DNA of 64,000 bases from Mobula hypostoma (taxonomy: Eukaryota). The position numbers and the translations under genes were made by a program. Below the pieces are notes generated by a model, which saw nothing but the letters and a program-made list of their open reading frames with translations, was not told the DNA's origin and searched no databases. The stretch lies in assembly GCF_963921235.1 (NCBI RefSeq), contig NC_086108.1:16182001-16246000 (forward strand), in the 5' to 3' direction. Below are positions 5,489 to 43,129 of this stretch, piece by piece; positions within the stretch are counted from its first letter, which is position 1; every line of letters starts with the position of its first letter.

Positions 5489-7474
5489 ACATAGAAACAT
5501 AGAAAATAGGTGCAGGAGTAGGCCATTCGGCCCTTTGAGCCTGCACTGCCATTTATTATGATCATGGCTGATCATCCAACTCAGAACCCTGCACCAGCCT
5601 TCCCTCCATACCCCCTGATCCCCGTAGCCACAAGGGCCATATCTAACTCCCTCTTAAATATAGCCAATGAACTGGCCTCAACTGTTTCCTGTGGCAGAGA
5701 ATTCCACAGATTCACCACTCTCTGTGTGAAGAAGTTTTTCCTAATCTCAGTCCTAAAAGGCTTCCCCCTTATCCTCAAACTGTGACCCCTCGTTCTGGAC
5801 TTCCCCAACATCGGGAACAATCTTCCTGCATCTAGCCTGTCCAATCCCTTTAGGATTTTATACGTTTCAATCAGATCCCCTCTCAATCTTCTAAATTCCA
5901 ACGAGTACAAGCCCAGTTCATCCAGTCTTTCTTCATATGAAAGTCCTGCCATCCCAGGAATCAATCTGGTGAACCTTCTTTGTACTCCCTCTTTGGCAAG
6001 GATGTCTTTCCTCAGATTAGGGGACCAAAACTGCACACAATACTCCAGGTGTGGTCTCACCAAGGCCTTGTACAACTGCAGTAGTACCACCCTGCTCCTG
6101 TACTCGAATCCTCTCGCTATAAATGCCAGCATACCATTCGCCTTTTTCACCGCCTGCTGTACCTGCATGCCCACTTTCAATAACTGGTGTATAATGACAC
6201 CCAGATCTCGTTGCACCTCCCCTTTTCCTAATCGGCCACCATTCAGATAATAATCTGTTTTCCTATTTTTGCCACCAAAGTGGATAACTTCACATTTATC
6301 CACATTAAATTGCATCTGCCATGAATTTGCCCACTCACCTAACCTATCCAAGTCACCCTGCATCCTCTTAGCATCCTCCTCACAGCTAACACTGCCACCC
6401 AGCTTCGTGTCATCCGCAAACTTGGAGATGCTGCATTTAATTCCCTCACCCAAGTCATTAATATATATTGTAAACAACTGGGGTCCCAGCACTGAGCCTT
6501 GCGGTATCCCACTAGTCACTGCCTGCCATTCTGAAAAGGTCCCGTTTATTCCCACGCTTTGCTTCCTGTCTGCTAACCAATTCTCTATCCACGTCAATAC
6601 CTTACCCCCAATACCGTGTGCTTTAAGTTTGCACACTAATCTCCTGTGTGGGACCTTGTCAAAAGCCTTTTGAAAATCCAAATATACCACATCCACTGGT
6701 TCTCCCCTATCCACTCTACTAGTTACATCCTCAAAAAATTCTATGAGATTCGTCAGACATGATTTTCCTTTCACAAATCCATGCTGACTTTGTCCGATGA
6801 TTTCACCGCTTTCCAAATGTGCTGTTATCACATCTTTGATAACTGACTCCAGCAGTTTCCCCACCACCGACGTTAGGCTAACCGGTCTATAATTCCCCGG
6901 TTTCTCTCTCCCTCCTTTTTTAAAAAGTGGGGTTACATTAGCCACCCTCCAATCCTCAGGAACTAGTCCAGAATCTAACGAGTTTTGAAAAATTATCACT
7001 AATGCATCCACTATTTCTTGGGCTACTTCCTTAAGCACTCTGGGATGCAGACCATCTGGTCCTGGGGATTTATCTGCCTTTAATCCCTTCAATTTACCTA
7101 ACACCACTTCCCTACTAACATGTATTTTGCTCAGTTCCTCCATCTGACTGGACCCTCTGTCCCCTACTATTTCTGGAAGATTATTTATGTCCTCCTTAGT
7201 GAAGACAGAAGCAAAGTAATTATTCAGTTGGTCTGCCATGTCCTTGCTCCCCATAATCAATTCACATGTTTCTGTCTGTAGGGGACCTACATTTGTCTTT
7301 ACCAGTCTTTTCCTTTTTACATATCTATAAAAGCTTTTACAGTCAGTTTTTATGTTCCCTGCCAGTTTTCTCTCATAATCTTTTTTCCCCTTCCTAATTA
7401 AGCCCTTTGTCCTCCTCTGCTGAACTCTGAATTTCTCCCAGTCCTCAGGTGAGCCACTTTTTCTGGCTAATTTG
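5489..7474 (-). mobile_element. 5'-truncated young CR1 LINE with an uninterrupted RT ORF
   Basis: 634-aa open frame with KSPGPDG, NYRPVSLTS, YLDFQKAFDKVPH, PQGSVLGP, FADD; 3' UTR ends in a TTTCTATG-type tail. Confidence 0.95.
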
Positions 7475-7503
7475 TTACCACCCAAAGGCTACCTATTCCT
7501 TAC

Positions 7504-20929: not shown

Positions 20930-22120
20930 CAGAGAAATTTTACAAGGATTTTGCCAAGACTGGAGGACCTGAGTCATAAAGAAAAACTTGACAGGTTAGG
21001 ATTTATTCCTTAGAATGTAGAAGGTTGGGGGGGATTTGACAGAGGTACACAAAATTATGAGGGGTATAGATAGGATAAAAGCAAGTAGGTTTTTTCACTG
21101 AGAGGTCATGGGTTAAGGGTGAAAGGTGAAAAGTTTAAAGGGAACATGAGGGGCAATTTCTTCATTTGGAGGATCAAGAGAAGTGAGGAACGAGCTGCCA
21201 GCACAAATGATGGATACGATTTTGATTTGAATGGTTAAGTGAAATTTGGATAGGTACATGGATGGGAGGGATATGGAGGGCTATGGTCTGGTCCAGGTCG
21301 ATGAGAATAGGCAGGCCAAATTTCTGTGCCATACTTTCATGACCTCTATGGCTCTAAGTGTGAGGTATTGCATTGCAGAAAGACAAATCAGGATAGGACA
21401 GTCACAGTCAATGGTAGGGCCCTGGGCAGTGTTAACAGAGGGAGAGGGAGTTCCCTGAAAGTAGTGTTGCAGGCAGACAGGGCGGTTCCATCAGTCAGGG
21501 CATTATGTATAGATGTCGGGAGGTTATGTTGCAGGCAGACAGGGTGGTGAAGAAGGGTTCCACCAGTCAGGGCATTATGTATAGATGTCGGGAGGTTATG
21601 TTGCAATTGTACAAGACAGTCAGGTTGCACTTGGAATATTGAGTTCAGTTTTGTTCAGCCTGATATAGGAAAGTTGTCATTAAGTTGGAAGGAATGCAGG
21701 AGAGACTTACAAGGATATTATGCATTTTGAGGGATTTAGTTACAGAGAGAGGTTGATCATGATGGGACTGTTTTCATTGGAGTGTAGGAGCAAAGGTAGA
21801 TAAAATCATGAGGGAGTTTGCTAGGGTCAATGTGCACTGCCTTTTACCCAGGCTTAGGAAATCAAGAACTAAAATGCCTAGGTTTAAGTTCAGAGTGGAG
21901 AGATTTAATAGGAACCTAAGAGCCAATGTCTTCAAACAGATAGTGGTCAATAGATACAGGTACCTTGATAACATTTAAACGTTGTATGTACAGGTACATG
22001 GATAGGAAAGATTTAGAGGGGTGGGCCAAACATGGGCACATGGGACTAGCTCAGATGGCCACTTTGGTCTGCATGGACCAGATGCGCTGAAGGGACCATT
22101 TCAGTGCTGTATGACTCCAT
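20930..22120 (+). mobile_element. Two old CR1 3' fragments
   Basis: Decayed CR1 ORF2 C-terminus and 3' UTR sequence; a ~72-bp internal tandem duplication at 21484-21605. Confidence 0.7.
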
Positions 22121-22209
22121 CTAATTCACACCCTCCCCCAACCCACAGACGCTGCTCAACCCACTGAGTTCCTTCAGAAGATTCCAGGATCGGTAGTCCC
22201 TTATGATTC

Positions 22210-22903
22210 TGTAGCACCCCTGGCCACCCTCAGGGTCGCTCGACTCTCTGTCGTCCAGGGAAACAGCCCTCGGCCCCGCCAATCTGGGTAATTAGTTTGT
22301 GTGAATGCTGTGTGATGTACCCCACCCCGCCCAAATAACAGACAATACACCAGATACGATTAAATGATTTACAGTTTGTAGATATTACGGGAACTATATA
22401 ATTAATAGAGAATAAAATATAAAAGGAAAATAAAAGGCCACACTTATCAAAGTTCAATCTCTTCGTGCACAAAAAAGTTGGAGCTCAGGACCCTTCTTCT
22501 TCACCCTGCGACCCCTCGGACCACCTCAACCGGCCACCTGGGACCAACAACGGTGGTCGACCAGACGTTCCACACGAGTCCGTCTCCGTCTCCTCGCCGA
22601 ACGCCCTCCTCGGGGTCCGACCCCGTTAGCGGACATCACAGCACCTGGTCCATCCTCTGTCTCTCTCTCCCGCCTTCTGCCCCAAATCCCCGTGCATACA
22701 AGATCTTACAGATACACCAAAAACATAACAACTATCCCAATTGATTCATAACATCTTCTTATCAGTAACGTGATTCAACAAACTGCTAGCGGGAGGACTT
22801 TCTCAGCATTTAACATAACAAAGAAGCATTCCCAAGTATAACATAACAAAGAAGCCATTTTAATTAGCCTACGCAGTAACATAAGAGACGAAACCCCCTT
22901 AGA
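22210..22903 (-). repeat. 3' LTR of the non-autonomous element
   Basis: Direct repeat of 25706-26407, about 95% identical by eye. Confidence 0.95.
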
Positions 22904-23399
22904 CTCTCCCCCCACCAAATAAAGTCACGTCCTCATGACTTCTAAATAACTCGCCAATCAGTCCTGCAGACACACAACACACACATACACAGATACACAC
23001 AGTGACAGTGCTCCCCAAACAGTGGACCTCACACCCTCTCACGCGTGCTACATAGGCGAACCTATCTGGGAGCTTCTTAACCCTCCGAGACCTCCATACC
23101 CCCTCACCTAAACCCAAAAGGCTCAGACACTACCAGGGATACCTCGGGCCTGTTTGCCAACTCCTCTCTCACTTATGCCACCATTACAGCTCGAAGCCCC
23201 CTGTCCCGTGTCCGGGATCCCGCTACTTTTCCTTCCTGATCCTGCCACAACTCAGACTGCCCACAGCTAGCTCTCCCCACTACACCTGACTCAGTGGGAG
23301 AAGGGCCAAAGGTCTCTTCCTCAATCACAGGAAAGTTAGCGAAAGGCAGTGTGTACCACATGTGCAGCACATCATCCTTCGAATCCATATTCTTCCTCA

Positions 23400-24250
23400 T
23401 TCCCTCGATCGGTAGCTGCTGTTCGAGTTTCTCCAAACTGAAACATTTAGCCAGGGCTACCCCTACAGCCTCATGCAGTCGAGACGTCAGCTTCTTCGGG
23501 AACTCCTTCAACTCTCACCACAGCCTCACAGTTCTGACTCAGGGTTCTTGGCCATCTCCATCTGGGACGTAGTTACCCCACCAGCTTCTTCCTCCCTGAC
23601 CTGAGAAGCAGCAGTTAAAGAATGTTCAGCCTCCAGTTTTTCCTTCCTGATGACGCCTTCCAGGTCAACTTTCAGTTTTTCCACTTCATTTAAACTCGCG
23701 ATAGACATCTTCAAGTTCCTTTCAAGCATCCGCCTCCCTTTTCTGAGATCTGCCCTCCATTTCTTCACCTCCTCGGGAGTGTAGTCAAACTCCCCTCCCT
23801 GGGCTCTCGGTTTTCTGTTGGCCTTAGTCAGAACACTTCCTTGATCTTCCCCAACTTGTAAGTCTTCCAATCTTTTCTGAATCGATGTCTTGAGTTTCTG
23901 CTGATCCCTTGGAAGGTGGGTCATTGTTTCTTCTCGCTGGATTAATTCATCAGTACATGACCGCAGTGTCGGCTCGGAATTCTGTTGCTCCTTCTCCACG
24001 TTGACGAGCGTGAATTCCAAGTCTGCAATGGTTGTCCCACAAGTGCGGCACTCAGTCTGCAGCCAGCATTTCTGAGCACTCAGTTCAGCGGTGCAAATCC
24101 CCTCTCTCCCCTGTGTCTCATTCAGATGGATGGGTTTCCATCCCCAGGTCCACCACCGTCTGTTCCAACACCAGGAAGTTCAACTGGTATGTCAGGTCAT
24201 TTTTCTCACATTGTACCAAACTCCTCTGGTCAAAAACTCCTCCACATTTG
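23400..24250 (-). pseudogene. Captured intronless sarcomeric myosin heavy chain rod fragment (MYH16-like)
   Basis: Colinear myosin rod motifs: [118 protein letters not shown]. Confidence 0.8.
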
Positions 24251-25684
24251 ACACTTCGCTTATGTCGTCCAGGCTCAGCCACTTACCTCGCTTCATAGTC
24301 CCCCCAGGCGAATCCAAGCTCTAGGCGGTCATCCACATACGTCAAAACTCCACACACCTTCACTTCCCCCATGGTCTTCCTCATGCCCCGTGGGAAGGAT
24401 GCAGGGGCTCCGGATATGCCCTTGGGCATCTTTTCGGATCGGAAGAATCCTAGGGAACTAATAACGGCCATCTTCGGCTCGACAGCCGCACTCCTCGGGA
24501 TCTGGCAATGTCCACTCCTCAGATCCAGCACATTAAACTACATCGCATAATCCGCACACATGCTGCCTCCCTCTTCCATGGCGGCCAGGGTCCAGTTGCC
24601 GCAACCTCTCTCTCACTGAGGTGTCTTCAGCGGTCAACTCCCCTCCCTCGTGGTAGTTTGGAGCATTTACTAAGAGGGTCTACTTTCCCCAAGCCGTACC
24701 ACCGCTGGGTCTCGCTTTAATTCGGTACCGGCTCAAGGCTGCTACGCACTTCCTCAGAAGCAGCTCGACACACTGGGTGCCCAGACAATGCCCCCATGAA
24801 CTCCAGGGTCATCGTCTTCTGAATAACTACTGGCACTGGTATCCAAAATCTCCGGTGCCCTTGCGGTTGTCAAGGGTAAATGCTTCAGACACTGGTTGTA
24901 AAACGAACTGTACAACAACTTGACCTGCGCCCCGGGGTTGAGAATGGCTTTAGCATCACTTCCCTCTATCCATAACGACAGCCTAGGGCGTGGTCCCTCT
25001 AAGCCTTCAGGAATAGGGTCTTTTCCTTGTGGAAGTTCATTGGTACATTGCTAGGAACGTGCTTCCCCAGAGACCCCAAGCCGTTTCCCCACTGGGCCTC
25101 CACTAAGTTTCCCAACACCTCTCTGGTCAGCTGAACAACTGAAGGAGGGGCTGATCCCCTGAAATGATCCCCATGGCACTGCAAGCAATTTAGCCACCCT
25201 CCTAGCCAGAGAAGACACACTGAAAACTTTCCCCCCTCTTTCAAATAACTGACAGCTGTCACTACTGTGTAAGTGAACCTGACAGCTCTAACACCGTCAC
25301 CAGCCCGCCTACTTAAACTTTCAACCAATCCCTGTCGCTCTCCCTCAACCGAGCACTGCCACTAATCTAGCAACTGAGAGATCCGCTCCGCCCATGTCTC
25401 GCACACCTCCGCCCCTCTTGGGGTGGACACTATCTCAAGCACCAGGTGGAGCCTGCCAGAGCTAGAACATTTATTCGCAGACACTACCTCCAAATTAGAC
25501 CACTTTTTCCTCTCTCTCCCAACAGCATGGACAGCCCTGAGTGCCACGTCCAACTCATCAATGCCAGCCTGAACTTGAACAAAGATTGCACCTACCATGT
25601 ATACAGCAATAACCAGCAAATAACCCACAGAGACACACATTACAGATTTAAACAGGGCATCCACACAGCATACCAGTAGACCCA

Positions 25685-25702
25685 ATCCCGGATGAGCCCC
25701 CA
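25685..25702 (-). promoter_or_regulatory. Primer binding site (tRNA-Pro, one mismatch)
   Basis: TGGGGGCTCATCCGGGAT, 3 nt inside the 5' LTR; canonical PBS-Pro is TGGGGGCTCGTCCGGGAT. Confidence 0.9.
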
Positions 25703-25705
25703 CAA

Positions 25706-26407
25706 TGTAGCCCCCCCCCCTCCCGGCCACCCTCAGGGTCGCTCGGCTCGCTGTCGTCTAGGGAAACAGCCCTCGGCCTCGCCAAACTGGGTAATAGTTT
25801 GTATGGATGCAGTGTAATGTACCCCACCCCACCCAAATAACAGACAATACACCAGTTACGATTAAATGATTTACAGTTTATAGATATTACTGGAACTATA
25901 TAATTAATAGAGAATAAAATATAAAAGGAAAATAAAAGGCGCCACACTTATCAAAGTTCAATCTCTTCGTGCACAAAAAAGTTGGAGCTCAAGACCCTTC
26001 TTCTTCACCCTGCGACCCCTCGGATCAGCTCGACCGGCCGCCTGGGACCAACAACGGTGGTCGACCAGATGCTCCACACAAGTCCGTCTCCGTCTCCTCG
26101 CCGAACGCCCTCCTTGGGGTCCGACCCCGTTAGCGGACATCACAGCACCTGGTCCATCCTCTGTCTCTCTCTCCCGCCTTCTGCCCCAAAACCCCGCGCA
26201 TATAATATCTTACAGATATACCAAAAACATAACAACTATCCCAATTGGTTCATAACATCTTCTTATCAGTAACGTGATTCAACAAACTGCTAGCGGGAGG
26301 ACTTTCTCAGCATTTAACATAACAAAGAAGCATTCCCAAGTATAACATAACAAAGAAGCCATTTTAATTAGCCTACGCAGTAACATAAGAGACGAAACCC
26401 CCTTACA
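25706..26407 (-). repeat. 5' LTR of the non-autonomous element
   Basis: TG...CA termini; direct repeat of 22210-22903. Confidence 0.95.
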
Positions 26408-29400
26408 ATTCTATTTAACGCTCTGCCAAGGGATGCGATTTGCAGATTGACAGAAAAAAAATACAGTTTCAAAGATGGGCTCAAACTCTCTGTAAAGAAA
26501 TGCAGCATCCTGCATGACTCCCGGGAATCTGTGGCCTCTGAAGGTGCAAAGTCAAGAAGGAGCACTGGGATGATGTTGAGAACTTCAGGTCCACGTACCA
26601 GGAGAACATAGAGGCCCGTGCAAATGGCGGAAGGAGCACACCACCTTATATTCTGTACATCCACCACATAACCAGCTTTTGCCTCGTCTGTGGATGTATC
26701 TTTGGTTCCCACATTGACCACAGCAGTCACCTCAGAACTAGAGAGGAAATGAGACATCCTCAATCTCAAGGATCACCTGGGACAGCAGAGCTGCAGAGAT
26801 AGACTGCAGACAAAGCCAGTGGTCCACTTGATGTCAGAAATTATATGCACCAAGAGGCTTTAATAAGCATACTTATCCCAGGTTTATTGATTGGAAACAC
26901 CACACTATAGGAAGAATATCAACAAGTAGAGAGGGTGCAGAAAGCTTCACAAGGATGCTGGAGGGCTTCACTTATAAAGAGAGGCTGAGAATGCGTTCCC
27001 TGGGATAAAGGAGGCTGAGGGGTGATCTTATCGAGGTTTATTAAACCATGAGGTGCTTAAAAAAAGTGGGTGGATGGCATGGGTGAGTTGGGCCAAAGGA
27101 TTAGAATGGACGAGTTGGGCCAAAGGGCTGTTTCCATGCTGTATAACTCCATGTGCTGAAGTTAAATCCAAAGCTCCCTGGAACATGATGAGACTCTTTG
27201 GCTCTCTCCCACTCACATCGACTTGAATCCAAGCCCCCAGTTCGCTATGGAAACTTGAGTCTACCTGAATCTTTCTGACTGAAACATACCGCCTTATACT
27301 GCGAACCCGCAGATCACTTGCAGTACTTCCTGCGTTACCTGTGACACCCGCAATGCAAGTTACTGTGTGGCCTCCCGCAAGACCCGCCCTCCCTCATCAA
27401 CTGCAAGTGAAAAGGAACAGAGGCGTTGATGGCTAACCACAAACTTGTTTCTCTGGCGGCTGTGCTAAATGATGGTAAAAATAGCATTTCTCGTGCAACA
27501 AGTGGTCTGTTTAAACTGCAACTCCGAATAATAATACGACCCAAGTTTGTGGCGGTTGTGCTAGCAGCGTGGCGAAGCTGTGTCATTCGAGAGAGAAGGG
27601 TTCTATAGAGACTTTACCCGAATCACTCATCTTTGGTTGAAGATATTTGTGACCGGTTCCACCGACGGGTCTCTGCAGCGTGGCGCCAGGACCAGAGAGA
27701 TATTTCCTTACGTGTCAGTGTCCGGGATTGTGACGCTGTTTAATTCAACACTCGGTTCATTTGGGAAGATGAGACTAAAACTGTAGGTGGCTAACTGCGA
27801 ACTAGGATCTTGTTAATTCCTACTCTAGAGGGCTGTTACTGTTGCAATAGTAAAACGCTGGAAGAACTCAGCAGGCCAGGCAGCATCAATGGAGAGGACT
27901 TGACGTCCCCAGGCTAGATTCTTCATCAGAACAGGGTGATTCTTGATCTGGATTGTTACTGCTCCCGGGTTAACATACCTCGATAATCCTCTGCGTGGGA
28001 TGGTGATTTTATCGGAGAAGGGACGCAATTGGTTAAAACGTATGAAGTTTGTTGAAGATTTCGAGAACAAAACTTGCATTCCATTCCCCCGACTGGATCC
28101 CATGGCGAACCAATGCATTCTTTGGTCTTTTTTTAAAAAATGAATTGTGCTTTGAATACTTGTATACAGTAATGTAATGAGATAATCTTACAAACTGGTG
28201 CGTGCTCAAGAAATTCCCACAAACGACAGTCTGGAGTTTTTCCTGGATTTATTTGGCGATATTGGGCAGGATCGCGGAGTAACTCGCTGCTCCAACTAGT
28301 GCAGAGATTGGAGTTAAACCCACACGAGGTGGCTGGTGATAGTTTCCGACCACCATGTAGTTGACTGGGTTTTGGATTCCAGGATATTGAAAAGAATCGA
28401 CAGAAGAATCCGCAACTTCTTCTAAAAAGACTGCTAACGTTGAAAGTTCGATACAAAATAAAGAATGCTGAAGCGACACACACAAAATGCTGGGGGAGCT
28501 CAGTAGGTCAGGCAGCATCTATGGAAACGATGTTTCTGTCGGAGACCGTGCCTCAGATCTGGAAAGGATTTTGAGTGTGTCGCTCTGGATTTTCATTACA
28601 GTACTTGTAGAATCTCTTGTGTTAAAAAATGCTGGAAATACCCATCAGGTCTGTGGAGAGAGAAATGTTTCAGGTGGAAGACCTTTCTGCAGAATCCTTC
28701 CCCATTAATCTGAAACATTCACTGTGTTTCTCTCTCCTCAGATGTTGCTCAGAAATAGCCTGGGACTATTTCCAACATTCTCTATTTTATTTCCATAATT
28801 TTCTCTGTTCGTCGGAAAGAATCAGAATATCTCCAACCAGCTTTTTCTTGTGCGTTTGGAGTGTTGAACTCTAGGTGGGAAATTGCTGCAGTCCATTGGG
28901 TGAGATTTTCTTTTGATAGATAGATAGATAGATATACTTCATTGATCCCGAGGGACATTGCGTTTCGTTACAGCCGCACCAACCAAGAATAGAGCATAAA
29001 TATAGCAATACAAAAACCACAAACAATCAAACAACAAAATGCAAACTATGCCAGATGGAAAATAAGTCCAGGACCAGCCTATCGGCTCAGGGTGTCTGAC
29101 CCTCCACGGGAGGAGCTGCAAGTTCGATGGCCACAGGCAGGAATGACCTCCCGTGCCGGCCAGTGTTGTATCTCGGTGGACTGTGGCCGAAGTCCAACAG
29201 CAAAAAGTTCAATATCCGGTCTACAAACACGTTCCTCGATCGTAATATGACCCGGATTGCACCATCTGTTGTTAACCATCTTTGCAAGTAAAGGGCAATT
29301 TGGCCAATGCAATTTAAAGGTGCAATTTCAGGAGTTCAGGGGCAAAATGTCCCATGGGGTGAAGGGCAATGCTTAGGCAGCTTACATCAGATGTAGGTCA

Positions 29401-29469: not shown

Positions 29470-32400
29470 TCGAACATGTCCCATTGAGTCTATGCCACCA
29501 TTCCATCATGACTGATCCCAGATGCCACTCAATCCAATACATCTTACTTCTCTCCATATCCTGATCAGGAAACGATCAACTTCTGCCTTAAATGTATGTA
29601 CGGACTGGGCCTCCACAGCGGTCTGTGCTACAGCATTCCACAGATTTACTACTCTGGCTAAAAAAAATTCCTCCTTACCTCTGTTCTATAGCATGGTCCC
29701 TCAGTTCTGAGGCTGTGCCATCCAGTTCTGAATACCTCCACCACAGGAAATAGCCTCTCCACATCCACCCTATCTAGTCCTTTCAACATTCAGTAGGTTT
29801 CAATGAGATGCTCATGCACTCTTCTAAACTCCAGTGCGTCCCAAAGCTGCCAAATGCTCCTCATGTTACCCGTGCATTTCCGGAATCATCCATGTGAACC
29901 TCCTCTGGACTCTCTCCAATGACAACACATTCTTTCTGAGATAGGGGGCCCAAAACCTTTGACAATACTGTGGCCTGACTAGTCTCTTATAAAGGCCTAG
30001 CATTATCTCCTTGCTTTTATATTTTATTCCCTTTGAAATAAATGCCAACATTGCATTTGCCTTCTTTACCACAGACTAAACCTGTAAATTGACCTTCTAG
30101 GAATCTTGCACAAGGATTCCCAAATCCCTCTGCACCTCTGATATTTGAATTTTCTCTCCATTTAGATAACAGTCCACACTATTGTTCCTTTTACCAAAAT
30201 GCATGATCATACATTTCCCAACACTGTATTCCACCTGCCACTTTTTCACCCAATCTTCCCATTTGTCTAAGTCCTGCTGCAATCGCGTTGCTTCCTCAGC
30301 ACTACCTATCCCTCCACCTATTTTTGTATCATCCACAAATTTTGCCACAAAGCCATCAATTCCATTTTCCAAGTCATTGACAAACAATGTGAAAACCAAT
30401 ACTGAACCTTGAGAAACACCAATAGTCACCGGCAGCCAACATTTATTCCCACTTGCTGCCTCCTGCCCGCCAGCCATTCATTCCACTATCCATACCAGTA
30501 TCTTCCTGTAACACCACAGGATTTTATCTTGTTAAGCAGCCTCATGTGAAGTACCTTATCAAATGCCTTCTGAAAATCCAAGTAAATTACATCTACTGCT
30601 TGTCCTTTGTCCACCCTGCTTGTTACTTCCTCAAAGAACTCGAACAAATTTGGCAGGCAAGATTTACCTTTACAGAAACCATGCTGACTTCTTACTTTAT
30701 CATTAGACTCCAAGTACTCTGAAACATCATCCTTAGTAACAGATTCTAACACATTCCCAACCACTGAGGTTAGGCTAACTGGCTTATAATTTCCTTTCTT
30801 TTGCCTTCCTCTCTTCTTAAATATGACATTTGCAATCTTCCAGTCCTCTGGGGCCATGCCAGAATCAAGTGATTCTTGAAAGATCATGACCAATGCATCT
30901 CTTCAGCAAACTCTCCTGGTTCTTTGGGATTTAGTCCATCTGATCCAGGTGACTTATGCACCTTAAGACCTTTGAGTTTGCCTAGCACTTTTTCCTTTGT
31001 AATAGCAATGGCACTCACTCCTGCTCCCTGACACTCATGGACCTCTGGCTCACTGCTCATGTCTTCCACATTGAAGACTGATGCAAAGTACCTATTAAAT
31101 TAATTTGACATTTCTTTGTAGCCCTACTCCTACCTCACCAGCATCATTTTCCAATGATCCAATATCAACTCTCGCCTCCCTTTTACTCTTCATATAACTG
31201 AAAAATCTTTTGGTATCCTGCTTTATACTATTCACTGGTCTGCCTTCATAGTTCATCTTTTCCCTTCTTATAGATTTTTTAGTTGCCTTTTGCTGGATTT
31301 TAAAAATTTCCTTATCATCCAACTTCCCACTCACTTTTGCTACCTTATATGCTTTTTCCTTGACTTTTATGCAGTCCTTAACTTCCTTTGTCAGCTACAG
31401 TTGCCTGGCCCTGCCATTTGAGAACTTCTTCCTCTGTGGAATATATCTATCCTGCACTTTGTTAACTATTTCCAGAAACTTCAGCCATCTCTGCTCTGCT
31501 GTCATCCCCAACCTGCCATCATCCCCACCAGTATCCTCCTCCAATCCACCTGGGCAAGCTCCTCTCTCATGCCTCTGTAATTCCCTTTATTCTATTGTGA
31601 TCTGACTTATGTTTCTCCCTCTCAAATTGCAGTATGAATTCAATCATATTATGAAAACTGCCTCCTGAGGGTTCCTTTACATTAAGCTCCCTGATAAGAT
31701 CTGGGTTATTACACAACAGCCAATCTAAGATACTCTTTCCCCAAGCAGGCTCAAACATAAGGTGCTCTGAAAAGCCATCTCGTAGGTATTCAACAAATTC
31801 CTTCTCCTGCGATCTGACACCAACCTGATTTTCCCAATCCCCTTGCATATTGAAGTCCCCCATTACCATTGTGTAATTACCCTTATCACATGCCCTTTCC
31901 AGCTCCCTTTGCAATCGTAACCCCACATCCTGACCACAATTTGCGACCTCTTTCTAAAGATGTAATTCCATCTCTTACCAACAAAGCCACACCATCACCA
32001 ATGCCTTCCTGCATACAAAGTTTATCCTTTGCTGTTAAGCTCCCAGCTGTGGCCTTCCTTCAGCCACAAGTCAGTGATGCCCACAACATCATACTGACTG
32101 ATTTCTAATCGCTCCACGAGTTTGTCCATCTTATTCCAAATACTATGAGTATTTAAATAAGGCACCTTTGGTCTGCATTCTTCGTGCTTTTGAATTTTGC
32201 CTCTGTGTTACAATTTAACTCTTTGCTCTGTCTGCATTTGTACCCAATCATTGGCTTGTCCATCCTTATATTCATGTTACATCCATCATGTACTTGTAAA
32301 CCAGCTGGCTCATCCTCAGTTCTATCATTCTGGTTCCCACCCCCCTGCCATATTAGTTTAAATCACCCTCAACAGCTCTAATAAATCTGCCTGCAAGAAT

Positions 32401-35988: not shown

Positions 35989-36596
35989 TGTAACGTTCAG
36001 TTATATTGGCTCGTGTATGTCTAGGGGAAATCCAGCCCAGCACCGGCCTCAACACTCCCCACAGGGTCGGTTGCCGCCCGAATCAATCACAAACATCAAT
36101 CATCAGCCAGCACACCCAGTAAATTTTAACAAATACACTTTATAGATATTACTAATTCTATGACATTAATATACATTTGATACAGAGAGGAAAGTAATGG
36201 AAAAAAAAGGCGCCAACACTTATCAAAGTCCAAGTTCTTTGCGCGCTACGTTGGAGTTCAATTCGACTTCAGACGACCACCCGAATTCCGTCGACTCAGG
36301 GCTCGGGACCACCCTGAGTGATCGACCGGAGCCTCTCCACACGTCCGCGGTCCTCCTCGTCTCTCCTCCAACTCCCCGCCAAAACTCAGTCCACAGTCAT
36401 ATCATACAGCATGGTATCCGAAAACAAAACCATACATAACCACCCATTGGCTAATAGAACCCTGTTATCTCATTTTAAAGTAAAACAAAGTGTTAGCGCA
36501 AACTCTCTTCAGCGTTAAAGCACAACAAAGCCGCATTCCCCAGATTAACATAACAAAGTCGCCATTTTAAATGTAACAAAAGAAAGACCCCGTACA
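35989..36596 (-). repeat. Gypsy 3' LTR
   Basis: TG...CA; about 97% identical to 42521-43129 by eye. Confidence 0.96.
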
Positions 36597-36655
36597 CTCT
36601 CCCCCCCCACCTCAAAAAGTCATGCCCTCATGACGTTAACAGAGTTCACCAGGGC

Positions 36656-39600
36656 TCATTGTAAAACACAAAACCCAACCCAGGTGCATAAAGCAGTGAC
36701 ATAACTTTGCAGGGCAGTAGAGATCACACCCTGCTCTCCCGGCGCTATATAAGTGAGTCTTTCCGGGGGATGCCTACTCCTCTGAGGCCTCTGTACTTCC
36801 TCTGCTGACTCTCCCTGTTCAGACACCCCAGTTGACCCCTCGGGCCTATCTGACGGACCTTCCCCTTCACCGGGATCCCTCTGCCCCGGTGAGCCCTCTG
36901 GCTCGGGTTCTGCCTCCACCCTCTCCTCCCCCAATCCCGGCTGTAATACAGGCGGCTCTGCAACACCCTCCCCCAATCCCGGCTGTAATACAGGCGGCTC
37001 TGCAACTCCCTCCCCCAATCCCGGCTGGAATACAGGCGGCTCTGCAACACCCTCCCTCGGTTCCCCTGACTCAGTGATGGAAGGGCCAAGAGTCTCTTCT
37101 CCCGGCACTGGGGAATCAGCGAATGGAAGCAGGTACCACACGTCCGAATCATCATCTTCCGATGACGTATCCCTTCTGGAGGTGGGGACCGGCCCCGTTT
37201 TCTTCGCAGCGGGCTCTTTCCGCGCCCTCGCAAAGTCCTCGTAATAGGAGTAAACTCCCATTTGGGCTCTGGGTCCATCTTCACCTCTCGACCCAGAGGC
37301 AACAGGTGGTTCCAATGGAGTACCTTGACAGGCCCCTGCCCGCCCTCAGGTCTCACCCGGTAAACCGGGAGATTCGGCATCTGACTCTCCACCACATAGG
37401 GGGTGGCTGCCCAACGGTCCGCCAACTTGTGCTTACCCTGTAGTCCTAAATTCCGGATAAGGACTCGGTCTCCCGGCAATAGCTGGACAAACTTTACCTT
37501 CTGATCATACCTCCTTTTATTCCGCTGGTTCTGCTTGGTGGCTGCCGCCTCAGCCAACTCGTACGCCCTTTTCAACTCTCTCCTCATATCGGACACGTAC
37601 TTCAGACATGGCTTCGAAGGTATTTCCCCCGCTTCAGTCCCAAAACACAGAGCAATGGGCAACCTCGTTTCCCGTCCGAACATTAGATAGTAGGGCGAGT
37701 ACCCCGTGGCATCATTGCGAGTACAATTGTAACAGTGAACCAAATGGGCAATGGGCTGACTACACTTACTCTTCTGTCCAATCTCCAAGGTGCCGAGCAT
37801 GTCCAGCAGGGTCCGGTTAAACCTCTCGGGTTGAGGATCACCCTGCGGGTGATAGGGGGTGGTTCTGGACTTTCCAACCCCAAGCATATCCAGCAATTCA
37901 TGTTCTCTTGAAGTCCCGTCCCTGATCACTGTGGATCCGCCGGGGAAGGCCATAATTAACAAAGTACTTCTCCCATAACACCTTCGCCACTGTAGTCGCT
38001 TTCTGATCCTTAGTAGGAAAAGCCTACGCATATCTAGTGTAGTGATCCGTGAGGACCAAGACGTTCGCGGTATTGCTGGTGTCTGGCTCAATAGACAGGA
38101 AATCCATGCACACCAGGTCCATGGGTCCCGCACTCTGCAAATGGGGCAAAAGAGCCGCCTGCGCAGGCAAGATCTTCCTCCTGACGCAACGGCTACAGGT
38201 CTTACAGTATTCTTCCACTTCCCCGCTCATCCGGCGCCAGTAAAACCGGTCCTTGACTAATCCATTGGTCTTCTCTACCCCTAAGTGCCCGGAATCATCA
38301 TGTAGAGCCTGGAGCACAGTCTTCCGATACTTCTCAGGCATGACCAGCTGCCAGCGCCGGGGGTGGTCCGGAGGCGACGTGACCCGGTACAGGACGTGGT
38401 TCTTCAGCTTCAACCGGGGCCACTCCTTCAGTAGTAGGGGAACGGAGGCATGTTTCGCCTTCTCCACCTGCCCCATATCACCCTGGCTAACCGCGTACCA
38501 GATAGTGCCAATGCTCGGGTCATCACGCTGAGCCGCCTCTACTTCCTGGGGACTCAACTCCGGCAGCTGCCTGTTCCTCAGAGCAGTCACATTACAGTAA
38601 ACAGTGGGCAGCGCGTCATCGTCAGCCCCCAGTTGATCTACTGCCCGATCCGTTCCCATCTGTACTCCGACTACCCCGTCGCTCCCAACTTGACACATGG
38701 CCTTTACTCCCTGGGCGGGGACACTCTTCCACTCCTCGGCCGTGCCCGACTCGTCGTGCGCCCGACGAGACAGGGCATCTGCATCGATGTTCCGACTCCC
38801 CGGGTGGCACTTCAGGCTGAACTCATAGGCAGACAAGGCTGCTAACCACCGGTGCCCAGTAGCGTCCAGCTTCGCCGAGGTCAGGATATAAGTGAGGGGG
38901 TTGTTATCAGTTCTCACCTCAAACTGGGCCCCATATAGGTAGTCATTCAACCTGTCCACCACCGCCCATTTCAACGCCAAGAACTCCAGCTTGTGAGTGG
39001 GATAGTTTCTCTCAGATGGCGACAAACTCCGACTGACAAACGCTACCGGCCTCAATCCGTTTCCCTATTCCTGGTACAGAACAGCCCCCAGACCGTCGTG
39101 ACTGGCATCAGTGTGTAGAACATACGGCTTCCGGGGATCAGCAAATGCCAACACTGGGGCCTGCGTCAGCGCCCTTTTTAGAGATTGGAACGCCTCCTCA
39201 CATTGAGCATCCTACCTCAATCCAAAAGGCTCTCCCGGGTTCAAGTATCCTCCTACCTCCGACCCTCGGTCTCCCTTCCTCCTCCTCCCCACAGGTGGAT
39301 AGCCACACAGCAGCTGGTTCAATGGATGACTCATTTTCGCATATCCTTTCACGAACCGCCGGTAATATCCGCAAAACCCCAAAAACGAGCGTAAGGCGCG
39401 CACCTTCTGAGGTCTCGGCCAGGTGGTGACTGCGGCTATCTTATCCGGATCGGTGGCCACTCCATTTCGCGAGATTATGTGCCCAACATAACTGACTGAC
39501 GTTTTGCAGAACTGACATTTATCCAGGGAAAGTTTTAACCCTTCCTCCTTCAGCCGACTCAGCACCTTCAGCAGCCGCTCCTCATGTTCCTCCAACGTAG

Positions 39601-41158
39601 ATCCAAACACTATCAGGTCGTCCAGGTACACCAATACCTCCAGCAGGTTCATGTCCCCCACTGTCCGCTCCATGAGCCGCTGGAAGGTGGCTGGGGCCCC
39701 CGAGATGCCTTGGGGCATTCGTTCGAACTGGAAAAACCCCAGGGGGCAGATAAAGGCCGTCTTCTCCTTATCAGTCTCGCTCATCGGAATCTGGTAATAC
39801 CCACTCCGCAAATCCAATACACTGAACCACTGTGCACCACTCAGACAGGCCAATGCGTCTTCCACCCTCGGGACCGTATATTGGTCGGGAACAGTGCGCC
39901 GGTTCAGGGTCCTATAGTCCACGCACATGCGTACCTTCCCATTTTTCTTCCTGGCCACCACTATGGGGGACGCATAGGAGCTTCGGGACTCCGCGATAAT
40001 CCCTGCATCCTTCAACTGCCGCAAGTGCTGCCGCACATCTTCCACATCTGCTGGGGCCAACCGCCGCGACCTCTCTCTAAACGGGGTGTCATTTGTTACC
40101 CGAATGGTGTGCCGAGTGCTCTTGGAACATCCCACATCAAACTCGTCCTGAGAAAAGACATCCCCTAGCTTCAGCATCTTCTCCACCAGCCTGCTCTTAT
40201 ACTCCAGCGGTACAGGGGAGTTTTCAAAATTAAACGCCTCCTCGGTCAGCCGCCCCCCGTTTCCCAATAGTTTCCCTCCAGTGGGCTTCACGGGGGCGCT
40301 GGACATCATTGTCACCGGGAACAAGTGCGCAAGGAGCATCCCGCGCTTAAAGGTGATCTCCCGCTCCGTTATGTTCCTCACCATCACCCCCATCCGCCGT
40401 GCCTGTACAGCTGAGGGCCTCTGCAATTCAGGTCTCACTAGCGCCCCAGCCGGGAACCGGGACTCCCTTTCCAGGTCGTCGGGGGCGTCTACTAGCAGGG
40501 CCTCGCCCGGCGGTAATCCGGGGAATCTGGGGGTCCCCATCACTAATGCCTCCTCCCCTGGCCGTATCACCTTAGGCCTCGCCTGAGTGCACCACACCGT
40601 CCCTCGTTTGCACTCAGGATCCAGCCCCTGGGGGTCACTCACTCCTTCGTACACCGCTCGGAACACGGGGTGTACCGAGAGGGTCTCCAAAAAGTTCTCT
40701 CCCCTCCCCTTCTTTTTACAGGCTCCCAAGAGCCGTCGCACCAGAGGGGAGTTAGTCCCCACCAACAGGGCAGCACCACCGGTCTCCACCGGGTCCGGAC
40801 AAACCAACACCAGCGTCTCAAAGGCTTCCGATACTCCCACATCTCCCTCCGAAAATTCCAATCTCACTGACAAGTATCCATCGTACGGGTAATCACCATC
40901 ACTTATGCCTCAAATCTCCAATGCTTTAAACGGAGTGACTGCCAAATGTTTCAGATATTTGTTGTAGAACGACCGGTACAGTAAGGTAACCTGCGACCCG
41001 GTGTCAAGGATGGCTTTCGCAAAGATTCCCTCTATCCGTAGGGACACGCTGGAACGGGGTCCCTCCAGTCCATCAGGAATTTGTGCTTGTTCTTTCCGGG
41101 GTTCCATAGCGGTTTTCTGGGAACGTGTTCCTCCCGAGACTCCAGTCCGTTCCCTCAA
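36656..41158 (-). pseudogene. Gypsy pol (protease, RT, RNaseH, integrase), disrupted
   Basis: AILDTGSQV; LDLRSGYYQI, YLDD; RPVAFVSR, VRTDNNPL; HDDSGHLG..CKTCSRC, CMDFL, YHPQGDPQPERFNRTL. Split by a stop at 40910 and several frameshifts. Confidence 0.93.
36925..37055 (-). repeat. 39-bp tandem repeat (about 3 copies) in the integrase C-terminal tail
   Basis: Encodes EGVAEPPV(L/F)QPGLG three times. Confidence 0.9.
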
Positions 41159-42450
41159 TGAGCCTCTCCTAAGTTTCCCGACACCTCTCCCTTCTTAGTG
41201 ACCCGGGGGCCCTCCCCCCTCGGCGCATCTCGTCTCTCACAATCCTTCCGCATGTGGCCAGCTTCCCCACCGCGGTAGCACGCCCCCGGCCACTTACATT
41301 CCCGGCGGAAATGCCCCTCTCTCCCACAGTTATAGCACCCACTACTCGCCGCCTCTCTCCTCCCGATACGGCCCCCTGGAGACCCCTTGGATTTCTCTGG
41401 TATCACCCCGACTACCACCTCCTGAACCGCTGAAGACCGTCCCTGAGGGTCCGAGCCCCCTGGTCGGCCCAAAGCACACTCCTCGGCCCGTACCTCTCGG
41501 ATCAGCTGTCCGAATGATGGAGGGGGGCTCTGCTTAAGTGACTGTCGTACACTCCAAGCCACTCTGTCATCCCCCCGGGAACCGCTACATATCTGTCTCA
41601 TCCTTAACTCCGCCACTTCGTCCTCCTTCACTACCCCTCGTCGCAGCAACCCCGTAAGCTTTCCTTCCAGCCTGAAAGCATAGTCTGAGAGCTTTTCCCC
41701 TCTTCTCTGCCCCATCCGTTCCGCTAAATGCCGCCAGGGATCCCCTGACAGTCCAAACACTTCCTCCAAAGCGTCCAAACACTCCGACAGGGAAGCCAAG
41801 GGGCGTGCCGCTCTCAGATCGCGGACCACCCGGGCCGCCCCGCCCCTTAAGCTTTTCACCAATCGCTGTCTCTTTTCCTCATCCGAAACTGGCCACACCT
41901 CTAACAATTGGGATGTATCTTCAACATCCTCCCCTTCCGGGGTGGGCTTGGCTCCCGAGAAAATTCTCAGCTTCGGGCAGTGCCCCTCAACCCTTCTCGC
42001 CAGGGAGGTAATGGCGGCCGTTAACTCGGCAGTCTCATCCCGCCCATGGGGGCCGGGCCTGGCCAAACCTTCCCACTCCACACCTCCACCCCTGGCTACT
42101 GGCACCTCCCTTGGGGCCTCATCTAGCTCCTTCTCCTCTGGCACCTCCTCACTTGCGTCCTTGGGGAGAGTGTGGAGACCCCACGGCCCCGCCTCCCCCG
42201 GGACATGGACTGTCGCTGGTAGTTCCAAAGTCATGACGTTGGCACTCGTCCGCACCAACATCCAGCTAGCCTCCAGTTCTTTCCCACCTCTTCTAGCTAC
42301 AAGTTCTACCTGCCCGATACCTTTAATCAAACTCAACCCTCGCACCAGTACCTCTGCCGGAATGCGATAATCGACCCCGCTTACCACACATGCATGATTC
42401 ACTGGTACCTCCTCCAATTCACACCAACTTACAATCTTATCTCGATCCAT
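41155..42450 (-). CDS. Gypsy gag (PNMA-like, with CCHC zinc knuckle)
   Basis: Open frame from ATG (MDRDKIVSW); LRIFSG..P, KRQRLVKSLRGGA, QRRGEKLSDY..RLE, CYNCGREGHFRREC and a second degenerate knuckle. Confidence 0.85.
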   Translation of the reverse strand: MDRDKIVSWCELEEVPVNHACVVSGVDYRIPAEVLVRGLSLIKGIGQVELVARRGGKELEASWMLVRTSANVMTLELPATVHVPGEAGPWGLHTLPKDASEEVPEEKELDEAPREVPVARGGGVEWEGLARPGPHGRDETAELTAAITSLARRVEGHCPKLRIFSGAKPTPEGEDVEDTSQLLEVWPVSDEEKRQRLVKSLRGGAARVVRDLRAARPLASLSECLDALEEVFGLSGDPWRHLAERMGQRRGEKLSDYAFRLEGKLTGLLRRGVVKEDEVAELRMRQICSGSRGDDRVAWSVRQSLKQSPPPSFGQLIREVRAEECALGRPGGSDPQGRSSAVQEVVVGVIPEKSKGSPGGRIGRREAASSGCYNCGREGHFRRECKWPGACYRGGEAGHMRKDCERRDAPRGEGPRVTKKGEVSGNLGEAH

Positions 42451-42500
42451 CTTCACACCACTTACCACAACAACAAGTACAACTTTCCTGAAAAGTCCAA

Positions 42501-42518
42501 ATCCCGGACGAGCCCCCA
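42501..42518 (-). promoter_or_regulatory. Primer binding site, tRNA-Pro
   Basis: Exact TGGGGGCTCGTCCGGGAT, 2 nt inside the 5' LTR. Confidence 0.95.
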
Positions 42519-42520
42519 CT

Positions 42521-43129
42521 TGTAACGTTCCGTTATATTGGCTCGTGTATGTCTAGGGGAAATCCAGCCCAGCATCCGCCTCAACACTCCCCTCAGGGTC
42601 AGTTGCCGCCCGAATCAATCACAAACATCAATCATCAGCCAGCACACCCAGTGAATTTTAACAAATACACTTTATAGATATTACTAATTCTATGACATTA
42701 ATATACATTTGATACAGAGAGGAAAGTAATGGGAAAAAAAAGGCGCCAACACTTATCAAAGTCCAAGTTCTTTACACGCTACGTTGGAGTTCAATTCGAC
42801 TTCAGACGACCACCCAAATTCCGTCGACTCAGGGCTCGGGACCACCCTGAGTGATCGACCGGAGCCTCTCCACATGTCCGCGGTCTTCCTCGTCTCTCCT
42901 CCAACTCCCCGCCAAAACTCAGTCCACAGTCATATCATACAGCATGGTATCCGAAAACAAAACGATATATAACCACTCATTGGCTAATAGAACCCTGTTA
43001 TCTCATTTTAAAGTAAAACAAACTGTTAGCGCAAACTCTCTTCAGGTTTAAAGCACAACAAAGCCGCATTCCCCAGATTAACATAACAAAGTCGCCATTT
43101 TAAATGTAACAAAAGAAAGACCCCGTACA
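42521..43129 (-). repeat. Gypsy 5' LTR
   Basis: TG...CA; direct repeat of 35989-36596. Confidence 0.96.

Follow-up and report, generated by a model that had tools for sequence, protein, structure and literature searches.

A multicopy, non-autonomous Ty3/Gypsy retrotransposon family of rays carrying an MYH16-like myosin rod fragment

Acute transforming retroviruses (v-onc) are defective and helper-dependent, spliced host sequence having taken the place of viral genes in their genomes. They arise when reverse transcriptase (RT) switches templates on co-packaged RNA, template switching being the standard mechanism for such captures, and their cargo is selected for oncogenesis and spreads from cell to cell as virus. 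In animals, LTR-mediated retroposition leaves a partial, spliced host mRNA inside an LTR retrotransposon, part of which is replaced (Tan et al., 2016, Genome Res, PMC5131818). As described in that source, the animal retrocopies carry neither a poly(A) tract nor a target-site duplication (TSD), the chimera can act non-autonomously and retropose again, in-frame sense ORFs are common, and microsimilarity at the switch point is a hallmark (PMC5131818). The same paper describes maize Bs1 as an LTR element with exon fragments of three host genes, present at 1-5 copies per Zea genome (PMC5131818). Crocodilian endogenous retroviruses (ERVs) are reported to have captured KIT-ligand and nectin3 mRNA, nectin3 having replaced env, and the account given there is of near-complete ORFs under purifying selection in few copies, with six insertions for nectin3 (Chong et al., 2014, PMC4299795).

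The locus described here lies in a 64,000-nt stretch of the Mobula hypostoma genome (NCBI RefSeq assembly GCF_963921235.1, contig NC_086108.1, positions 16,182,001 to 16,246,000 of the forward strand), hereafter the window. Like the v-onc retroviruses it is a defective element with spliced host sequence in place of viral genes, but its cargo is neutral, a fragment within a parasite that multiplies inside the germline genome. It resembles the LTR-mediated retroposition cases in holding a spliced partial mRNA within an LTR element, the cargo itself having neither poly(A) nor TSD; whereas the animal cases set out in that source are young and present in one or few copies, the window's family has at least 477 copies of the exon junction, diverged subfamilies and a distribution over two ray families (PMC5131818). 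Host exon fragments are likewise carried in Bs1 as it is described (PMC5131818), but the window's family is a vertebrate one, holds a rod fragment from a single gene and numbers hundreds to thousands of copies. With the crocodilian ERVs, as reported, it shares the taking of a host mRNA, the loss of a viral domain, multiplication by retrotransposition and an age greater than a speciation; it differs in being of Gypsy type, in carrying an internal coiled-coil fragment, in having no detectable selection and in its far higher copy number (PMC4299795). A full-text literature search found no paper in the searched library describing a ray MYH16-like Gypsy family.

Positions 22210-26407 of the window (minus strand) are a copy of a 4.2-kb non-autonomous Ty3/Gypsy LTR retrotransposon, in which ~700 bp of sarcomeric myosin rod lies between RNase H and integrase remnants. 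Its features, in element sense, and those of a related element in the same window are as follows.

26408..26411, no strand: TSD GAAT on the upstream side; the flank reads ...ATAGAAT/TGTAAGG, against GCTACA/GAATC at the opposite end
25707..26407, minus: 5′ LTR, 701 bp, starting TGTAAGG and ending GCTACA
25686..25703, minus: primer-binding site (PBS) TGGGGGCTCATCCGGGAT, 3 nt past the 5′ LTR, read from the sequence
24754..25685, minus: leader and gag/protease remnants, frames broken
24283..24586, minus: reverse-transcriptase remnant, colinear with the RT of the window's intact Gypsy
24148..24234, minus: RNase H remnant, shortened by a secondary deletion; 24224-24148 corresponds to Gypsy 39030-38954
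23601..24128, minus: cargo part 1, myosin rod, ~residues 916-1100 of MYH16-like P0042
23529..23594, minus: cargo part 2, EEAGGVTTSQMEM..., ~myosin residues 1150-1172, from phmmer domain 3 alignments
23428..23514, minus: cargo part 3, including an 18-residue peptide, ~myosin residues 1385-1415, in a shifted frame
23173..23412, minus: integrase C-terminal tail remnant; 23412-23284 corresponds to Gypsy 37192-37064
22904..22916, minus: polypurine tract (PPT) GGTGGGGGGAGAG, adjoining the 3′ LTR on its upstream side, read from the sequence
22210..22903, minus: 3′ LTR, 694 bp
22206..22209, no strand: TSD GAAT on the downstream side
35989..43103, minus: related, largely intact Gypsy, LTRs 97% alike

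The LTR pair has TG..CA termini and is 95.3% identical over 685 aligned nt (JC K = 0.044), and the PBS may be of the tRNA-Pro type. Segments 25379-25304 and 25123-24878 are ~72-75% identical in nucleotides to the gag/protease (PR) region of the intact Gypsy; the gag/protease remnants of the window copy gave no Pfam match, and a sister copy has a PNMA-type gag remnant at 24.4 bits (cut-off 25). The RT remnant gives a weak RVT_1 match over 24283-24537 (E = 4.7e-4, below the Pfam cut-off), is 47% identical in amino acids to Gypsy PR-RT residues 350-445, and at 24541-24312 aligns with Gypsy 39830-39601 at 69% nucleotide and 47% amino acid identity (tblastx), while the integrase tail at 23412-23284 reaches 53% in amino acids (tblastx) and 71% in nucleotides (blastn). 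Together the remnants keep the RT, RNase H, integrase order of the intact Gypsy, and the RT and integrase-tail remnants that the original prediction placed on either side of the cargo are thus both matched to that element. Because no intact RT, RNase H or integrase domain is found in the element by Pfam, where RVT_1 stays below cut-off, it is classed as non-autonomous. The ORFs of the intact Gypsy encode, in order, a PNMA-type gag with CCHC, RVT_1, RT_RNaseH and Integrase_H2C2. It is 68-82% identical in nucleotides to the chimeras and is a relative of their ancestor; a helper role for it would be conjectural.

In the intact Gypsy there is no counterpart to the stretch between the RT/RNase H and integrase-tail remnants, as had been noticed from the sequence and is borne out by alignment. 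The cargo takes the place of Gypsy 38954-37192 in the window copy, and of 38723-37170 in older subfamilies. A minus-strand stop-to-stop frame at 23526-24179 (217 aa), of which the previously noted 164-aa frame is the portion starting at TTG 24020, holds DLEFTLVNVEKE, LEDLQVGEDQGSVLTK, NLKMSIASLNEVEKLKVDLEGVIRK and EEAGGVTTSQMEM. Searched against PDB chains with phmmer, it matches Myosin-4 (6ysy_A, E = 1.6e-16), with query residues 26-198 colinear with myosin 932-1101, and all 12 matches are sarcomeric myosin II heavy chains. Against the Callorhinchus myosin-16-like protein P0042, the cargo is 37% identical over 155 aa at residues 926-1080 (E = 1e-24), and part 1 is 36% identical over residues 916-1080 in a separate alignment. 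The proposed colinearity with the rod of sarcomeric myosin II therefore goes well past generic coiled-coil likeness, and chance resemblance is ruled out by the PDB match, the P0042 match and the nucleotide identity to parental exons given below. It is pairwise homology that carries this result, the Pfam Myosin_tail_1 profile giving no match at E ≤ 1 for the 217-aa frame.

Cargo part 2 gains support from relatives, aligning with residues 1141-1175 at 60% in locus L040 and being contiguous in L039 and L043. Part 3 lies in the frame that follows (23173-23514, a 113-aa piece), which alone has no significant match to P0042 (the lowest E, 0.87, falls in a different part of that protein); we call it myosin because less decayed relatives align there (L047, residues 1368-1415, 54%, E = 1e-8). 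The window copy holds ~230 rod residues, against ~340 in the fullest form, and its frame is disrupted at both cargo ends. At the RNase H/cargo border this copy alone has lost 5 nt (24126-24130), which puts the cargo out of frame with the remnant upstream, and a 36-mer spanning that border matches only the window at ≤3 mismatches. The motor domain and the full rod are absent from the cargo, which is a rod fragment within a transposon and not a myosin gene. The observation of myosin in an LTR element is thus real, with the cargo placed inside the element by the LTR pair and the colinear Gypsy patches on either side, where it replaces RNase H and integrase sequence as originally predicted.

The same genome contains an intron-bearing, MYH16-like parent gene, with four exons on contig C68 (C68:14583580-14651304), each with a polypyrimidine tract and AG acceptor and a GT donor. 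The exons mapped are A to D, residues 883-1013 and 1150-1415 falling outside them, and the introns between them measure 28.7, 3.0 and 35.6 kb. Three of the exons can be followed into the window copy:

23790..23879, minus: cargo from parent exon A, 86.7% nucleotide identity to C68 exon A
23643..23791, minus: cargo from parent exon B, 79.2% nucleotide identity to C68 exon B, without the 28.7-kb intron
23601..23639, minus: cargo from parent exon C, its start deleted in the window's subfamily, 84.6% over 39 nt; the 3.0-kb intron is missing

The exon A and exon B parts abut at 23790/23791, and B is joined to C in this copy as well. Across 17 loci of older subfamilies the exons are 80-100% identical to the parent in nucleotides (mostly 87-98%), with exons A and B abutting in 17 of 17, B and C in all except L047, and C and D in eight. 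Since the exons are joined precisely and without introns, the source was a spliced mRNA, and the intron-free crossing of exon junctions, noted in the original prediction for vertebrate MYH genes, is here shown directly against a parent gene in the same genome. A search for motor domains located a myosin heavy-chain gene cluster at C68:15.30-15.91 Mb and no myosin motor exon beside the parent exons, in a strict first-look search that could miss some. The parent gene may be a relic.

How close parent and cargo stand to MYH16 was addressed by naming and by phylogeny. P0013 is a Narcine gene model of the same kind as the parent, and among its 42 best matches 33 bear the name myosin-16 or myosin-16-like. 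In a tree built with a quick method and SH-aLRT support, with the reference myosins cut by best-scoring match, the parent groups with P0013 and eight cargos (SH-aLRT 99), and a split supported at 96 sets this clade, along with MYH16, apart from MYH7, MYH7B, fast and invertebrate myosins. With short rows and a long branch, the parent joins at an open node and does not fall within gnathostome MYH16. The claim that the cargo is closest to MYH16 is thus favoured by the names and consistent with the tree. Much of the cargo's divergence from textbook myosins was inherited from this divergent parent gene.

Copies of the chimera are dispersed in the genome, by counts that are floors or first-look numbers. 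Among 1520 first-look candidates, 42 DNA matches were scored, and 40 of these span nearly the full length with 91-100% identity. The window accounts for one of them, and the other 39 all carry the whole chimeric structure. The internal region aligns colinearly with each of 30 loci retrieved, nearly throughout in 20 and with internal gaps or truncation in 10. A 30-mer over the spliced exon A/B junction returned 477 matches at ≤3 mismatches, versus 0 for a control, and the protein query P0001 returned 3730 candidates. The family thus has at least several hundred copies and probably thousands. The five complete copies have five different 4-bp TSDs (GAAT, ATAA, CATG, AGTA, TTGG), two further copies being left out of this count as their 5′ LTRs lie beyond the fetched stretch, and the suspected multicopy family with distinct TSDs is thereby established. 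For the nearby copy L002, segmental duplication was considered and rejected, ~550 bp of flank on one side sharing nothing with the window. Four sequencing runs, kept as contigs and guessed to be RNA, cover the whole element and both cargo borders, and a subfamily with a 120-nt deletion is visible in 4/4; such coverage is no proof of transcription.

Family ORFs also occur in Mobula birostris, Hemitrygon akajei and Hypanus sabinus, so that with M. hypostoma at least four myliobatiform species from two ray families carry the element, and it has outlived the split between the manta and stingray lineages. In all four species these transposon ORFs are misannotated as myosin genes, under the RefSeq names "myosin-16-like", "myosin heavy chain ...-like" and "putative uncharacterized protein MYH16".

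Those gene models raise the question of whether the fused frame of gag remnant, RT remnant and myosin coiled coil is a working protein, one that aids assembly or packaging, inhibits the helper, or has been domesticated by the host, as the RefSeq names suggest. In many copies the cargo reads on in frame from the remnants before it, open frames of up to 836 aa and 716 aa occur, and 21 of 92 near-full-length P0001 matches have no stop over ~419 codons (counted from the match table). Between copies the cargo is also slightly more alike (93-95%, and 98.5% for L002) than whole elements are (mostly 89-92%). However, the other 71 of 92 contain stops, the median cargo-bearing frame across 35 loci is ~250 aa, different subfamilies have lost different parts of the cargo, and the window copy is frame-broken at both cargo ends. 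The dN/dS comparison called for at the outset was carried out by NG86 on 34 young copies plus the window and 11 old copies. In the true frame dN/dS is 0.70 within the young copies, 0.64 between young and old and 0.48 among the old, against 0.57-0.71 in two wrong frames used as controls. Because the true frame is no lower than the controls, within or between subfamilies, the cargo is a neutral passenger without sign of protein-level selection, and a working protein is improbable.

The history of the capture is best read in older subfamilies, which retain more RT and RNase H, the latter running on to Gypsy 38723, and a longer cargo (myosin ~883-1186 and ~1384-1415). Loci L032, L033 and L043 have a common junction between RNase H ~aa 96-114 and myosin residue 883, and the gap from 1186 to 1384, along with the same junction between myosin and integrase tail, is present in all subfamilies inspected. 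Since these junctions are common to the older subfamilies, a single capture event is supported. The gap could date from the capture or from soon after it, or could already have been present in the parent transcript. The original RNase H ~aa 100/myosin ~883 junction survives only in the older subfamilies: RNase H was replaced, as predicted, but the RNase H/cargo border of the window copy reflects a secondary deletion and is not the capture junction. The family's age must also be argued differently. It had been proposed that LTRs far more alike than the cargo is to myosin imply transposition long after capture; this fails in that form because the divergent parent supplies much of that distance (cargo and parent are 79-87% identical in nucleotides in the window copy). 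Long propagation itself still follows, because deeply diverged subfamilies share one capture junction.

LINE retrocopies extend inward from the poly(A) end of their source. A LINE-made processed pseudogene that landed in one Gypsy copy, followed by deletion of pol and amplification, might after enough deletions give a similar product, and further internal deletions did occur in this family. Yet the cargo comes from the interior of the mRNA (residues ~883-1415 of ~1940) and includes no 3′ UTR; no A-rich tract is present at its 3′ border, and neither a poly(A) tract nor a TSD brackets it, in the window or in the least-deleted copies. It replaces a pol segment of similar size without adding length, and one junction per side is common to all subfamilies. 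We regard this route as improbable. An origin at the DNA level, by insertion into or recombination with a myosin gene or by gene conversion that carried genomic DNA along, is hardly credible, for although the parent and many copies share one genome and ectopic exchange is conceivable, nothing specific points to it, and three introns totalling 67 kb are missing with exon ends joined to the base.

We therefore consider it very probable that an MYH16-like spliced mRNA was transduced by a Gypsy-type element and then amplified as a chimera, and the original prediction's reading is supported as largely right. In the family's ancestor ~1.5 kb of pol, comprising the final part of RNase H and the bulk of integrase, gave way to ~1 kb of spliced MYH16-like mRNA. 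By the likely mechanism, host mRNA would have been co-packaged, and RT would have switched templates twice during cDNA synthesis. The resulting provirus would have kept its LTRs, PBS, PPT and leader and lost its enzymes, with autonomous Gypsy relatives supplying RT and integrase in trans. A search for such helpers scored 40 of 2876 candidates and found no fuller Gypsy above ~86% nucleotide identity to an older chimera, the fuller relatives scored being 83-86% / 74-79% identical to it. The chimera was then recopied repeatedly, leaving the integrase-type 4-bp TSD at each complete copy examined, and split into subfamilies with further internal deletions as copies rose to hundreds and probably thousands.

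For the rays themselves, the most immediate consequence concerns annotation, as the misnamed models would swell myosin gene counts in comparative studies. It is also conceivable, though a long shot, that sense and antisense rod copies feed the germline piRNA system, with the parent myosin as a collateral target. If so, the transposon would have silenced the gene from which it had stolen and contributed to its death, and piRNA targeting could explain the fast-evolving, possibly headless parent with giant introns in stingrays and mantas. The type of event, LTR-mediated retroposition, is known, and its copy number here is unusually high: the published animal cases considered here are single- or few-copy (PMC5131818), whereas the ray family has reached at least hundreds. 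What the rays offer is a clean vertebrate mRNA transduction: a single genome shows the parent, the precise removal of three introns, the junction made at capture, the deletions that followed and copies with TSDs of their own.

The copy in the window is colinear, at ~70% nt, with a largely intact Gypsy whose open frames comprise a PNMA-type gag with CCHC, RVT_1, RT_RNaseH and Integrase_H2C2, and which is a relative of the chimera's ancestor.

Elements of the chimera and corresponding parts of the intact Gypsy (window positions)
22210-22903 and 25707-26407, minus strand: LTRs of the chimera, 95.3% alike over 685 nt (JC K=0.044), with termini on the minus strand that start TGTAAGG and end GCTACA
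Both flanks: target-site duplication (TSD) of the window copy, GAAT
After the 5' LTR: primer-binding site, and directly before the 3' LTR: polypurine tract, both recognised in the sequence
~35989-43103, minus strand: largely intact Gypsy, LTRs 97% alike
25379-25304 and 25123-24878: gag, equivalent to intact Gypsy 41913-41839 and 41189-40944
24541-24312: reverse transcriptase (RT), equivalent to 39830-39601
24224-24148: RNase H, equivalent to 39030-38954
23412-23284: integrase tail, equivalent to 37192-37064

The primer-binding site is presumably of the tRNA-Pro type. In the stretch from the RNase H patch to the integrase-tail patch no chimera sequence matches the window's intact Gypsy, and the myosin stretch (the cargo) therefore occupies the place of the RNase H end and most of the integrase, which bears out the original prediction that it has no counterpart in the related element. 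Elsewhere in the window, a 635-aa open frame on the minus strand (5581-7488) with a strong RVT_1 match (E=4.2e-34) belongs to a separate retroelement unrelated to the chimera, and positions 21484-21605 hold a 72-bp tandem duplication with two 50-nt copies 98% alike.

The cargo is recognizably myosin. A 217-aa stop-to-stop frame on the minus strand (23526-24179) contains all the motifs that the original prediction had named, and the adjoining minus-strand frame (23173-23514) contains [18 protein letters not shown]. Compared with all PDB chains, the 217-aa frame matches Myosin-4 (6ysy_A; E=1.6e-16), with residues 26-198 aligned to myosin 932-1101, and 12 of 12 PDB matches are sarcomeric myosin II heavy chains. 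Its alignment to a Callorhinchus myosin-16-like protein (P0042) shows 37% identity over 155 aa (E=1e-24). Homology is thus strong in pairwise comparison, whereas Pfam Myosin_tail_1 gives no match at E<=1 for the window cargo ORF; the 113-aa piece from the downstream frame is not significant alone against P0042. The window copy also carries a private 5-nt deletion at 24126-24130, which puts the cargo out of frame with the RNase H remnant and renders a 36-mer of this region unique in the genome; contigs of 4/4 runs retain these nucleotides.

The source of the cargo can be read exon by exon. A profile-free protein search over 1.84 billion representatives produced 39 matches, which include short ORFs from related chimeras as well as two genuine MYH16-like fragments. 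One of these, the Narcine bancroftii model 'myosin-6-like isoform X4' (P0013), led to a probable exon at 14612355-14612513 of contig C68 in the same genome as the window, within a myosin-rod gene of which four exons were located (C68:14583580-14651304).

Exons of the parent gene (offsets in the 80-kb C68 stretch examined)
1580-1666: exon A
30358-30503: exon B
33500-33590: exon C
69248-69304: exon D

Each exon is preceded by a pyrimidine tract and AG and followed by GT, and the introns measure 28.7, 3.0 and 35.6 kb. In the window cargo, the parts that correspond to exon A, exon B and an incomplete exon C are 86.7%, 79.2% and 84.6% identical in nt to the parent, and the first two are directly joined at 23790|23791. 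In 17 loci of older subfamilies the parent exons are matched at 80-100% nt with their ends directly joined (A|B in 17/17, B|C in all except locus L047, C|D in 8/17). Because the exons are joined without introns, the cargo is a copy of the spliced mRNA of this C68 gene, and the predicted crossing of exon junctions is seen directly against the parent. The unusual cargo residues LQVGED and AQRGE are present already in the parent exons, so that the distance of the cargo from canonical myosin is mostly inherited rather than due to decay. A strict first-look search, which could miss such an exon, turned up no motor-domain exon next to those of the parent, and the parent may be a myosin gene that is headless or in decay. 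About 0.65 Mb from it, at C68:15.30-15.91 Mb, is a cluster of myosin heavy-chain genes.

Which myosin this is was addressed by names and by phylogeny. Of the best rows for P0013, 33/42 are named myosin-16(-like), the top one having 51% identity to Callorhinchus. In a quick ML tree with 33 rows, those for parent and cargo being short, P0013 groups with the parent exons and with eight cargos in one clade (SH-aLRT 99), and a split supported at 96 separates this clade, lamprey MYH16 and gnathostome MYH16-like proteins from MYH7, MYH7B, fast and invertebrate myosins. The node joining the parent/cargo clade to the MYH16 side is open. The proposed affinity to MYH16 thus holds for the names and the side of the split but not for nesting inside MYH16, and we read the source as 'MYH16-like, divergent'.

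The chimera moves as a unit. Searching the 3.48-Gb genome with the 1141-nt cargo region gave 1520 first-look candidates, and 40 of the 42 scored matches, the window among them, are near full length at 91-100%. All 30 loci examined are colinear with the internal region, nearly complete in 20 and with internal gaps or truncation in 10. A 30-mer over the spliced A|B joint has 477 genome matches at <=3 mismatches (243+234; control, 0), while the Mobula birostris family ORF P0001 gave 3730 candidates and 97 scored matches, the best at 95% aa and none at 100% among those scored. The far ends of six copies were examined, and two further copies have no 5' LTR in the stretch examined; the five complete copies, including the window's, all differ in TSD (GAAT, ATAA, CATG, AGTA, TTGG). 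The insertions are therefore independent, and the multicopy family with distinct TSDs foreseen by the original prediction exists. LTR-LTR distances in these five (K=0.044-0.091) would suggest ages of roughly 20-45 million years at an assumed 1e-9 substitutions/site/year, which is not a ray-calibrated rate. Locus L002, in opposite orientation ~44 kb beyond the window copy and just outside the window (contig C50:16250087-16254233), is the relative most similar to that copy (95% overall, 98.5% in the cargo). None of its ~550-bp flank, available on one side only, matches the window, so that plain segmental duplication does not account for L002.

Loci L031-L045 and L047 represent other subfamilies, for the most part with 71-88% nt identity to the window copy. 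More of their RT survives, as do the initial ~100-114 residues of the RNase H/integrase ORF, with identities of up to 73-80% aa to the intact Gypsy of the window. Their cargo is longer, begins at myosin residue 883, and in the least-deleted loci (L039, L043) reads to ...LRRELEES, then KKKLTSRLQ.AEEAA.AAQAKCS.LEKTKQ (~1186->1384), then the integrase tail. Since the RNase H|myosin-883 junction is common to L032, L033 and L043, and the ~1186->1384 gap and the 3' cargo|integrase-tail junction to every subfamily inspected, the sequences point to one capture of ~1 kb that replaced ~1.5 kb of pol, with lineage-specific deletions later. In the window subfamily, part of exon C, myosin residues ~1100-1148 and the greater part of gag, PR and RT are missing; its RNase H end and myosin residues 883-915 are also deleted, making its RNase H|cargo border secondary. 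An abundant sister subfamily lacks 120 nt (23967->24088; 40 aa of cargo), a joint seen in 4/4 runs and in P0001. From the anatomy and known LTR-element biology, capture would have occurred by template switching and the chimera would be mobilised in trans. Fuller Gypsy relatives are common, many at 83-86% and 74-79% nt and with ~360 bp of RT absent from the chimera; none exceeds 83-86% among 40 scored of 2876 candidates, and the window's intact Gypsy is more distant (68-82%). The original observation is thus confirmed, and the proposed capture and propagation of a myosin mRNA is supported, with inherited divergence and the secondary border as corrections.

Pairwise NG86 dN/dS of the cargo (individual copies, pooled over pairs, no consensus)
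Within the young subfamily (34 copies and the window copy): true frame 0.70; wrong frames 0.57, 0.62
Young versus 11 older copies: true frame 0.64; wrong frames 0.62, 0.71
Old versus old: true frame 0.48; wrong frames 0.55, 0.71

Relative to the wrong-frame controls, the cargo shows no sign of constraint at the protein level; for the gag remnants (0.45-0.63 versus 0.71-0.86) there is only a hint of it. Long open frames occur (up to 836 aa), and one of 35 loci examined has a 716-aa frame joining PNMA remnant, RVT_1 remnant and cargo. With no dN/dS constraint, stops in 71/92 near-full-length matches to P0001 and a median cargo-bearing frame of ~250 aa (35 loci), we read the cargo as a passenger.

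Family ORFs appear as RefSeq models (P0002-P0008, P0010, P0012, P0016, P0161) in four ray species, named 'uncharacterized protein' in Mobula birostris and Hemitrygon akajei, 'putative uncharacterized protein MYH16' in Hypanus sabinus, and 'myosin-16-like', 'myosin heavy chain, cardiac/skeletal/striated muscle...-like' or 'putative uncharacterized protein MYH16' in M. hypostoma. They are transposon ORFs, as several have the RT remnant or integrase tail in the same frame. The dasyatid ORFs carry derived deletions of the young subfamilies, which implies that these deletions arose before the split or that the element has passed from one lineage to another. Full-text literature searches found no published description of the family. 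The chimera belongs to a known kind, LTR-mediated retroposition. Mammals, chicken, zebrafish, mosquito and fly all provide documented cases, in which microsimilarity guides the template switching and secondary retroposition follows occasionally, and maize Bs1 has 1-5 copies (PMC5131818); crocodilian ERVs have captured KIT-ligand and nectin3 mRNAs (PMC4299795). Compared with these cases, the ray chimera stands out by its copy number and subfamily radiation, by its spread over two ray families and by a parent gene whose exons can be followed one by one in the same genome.
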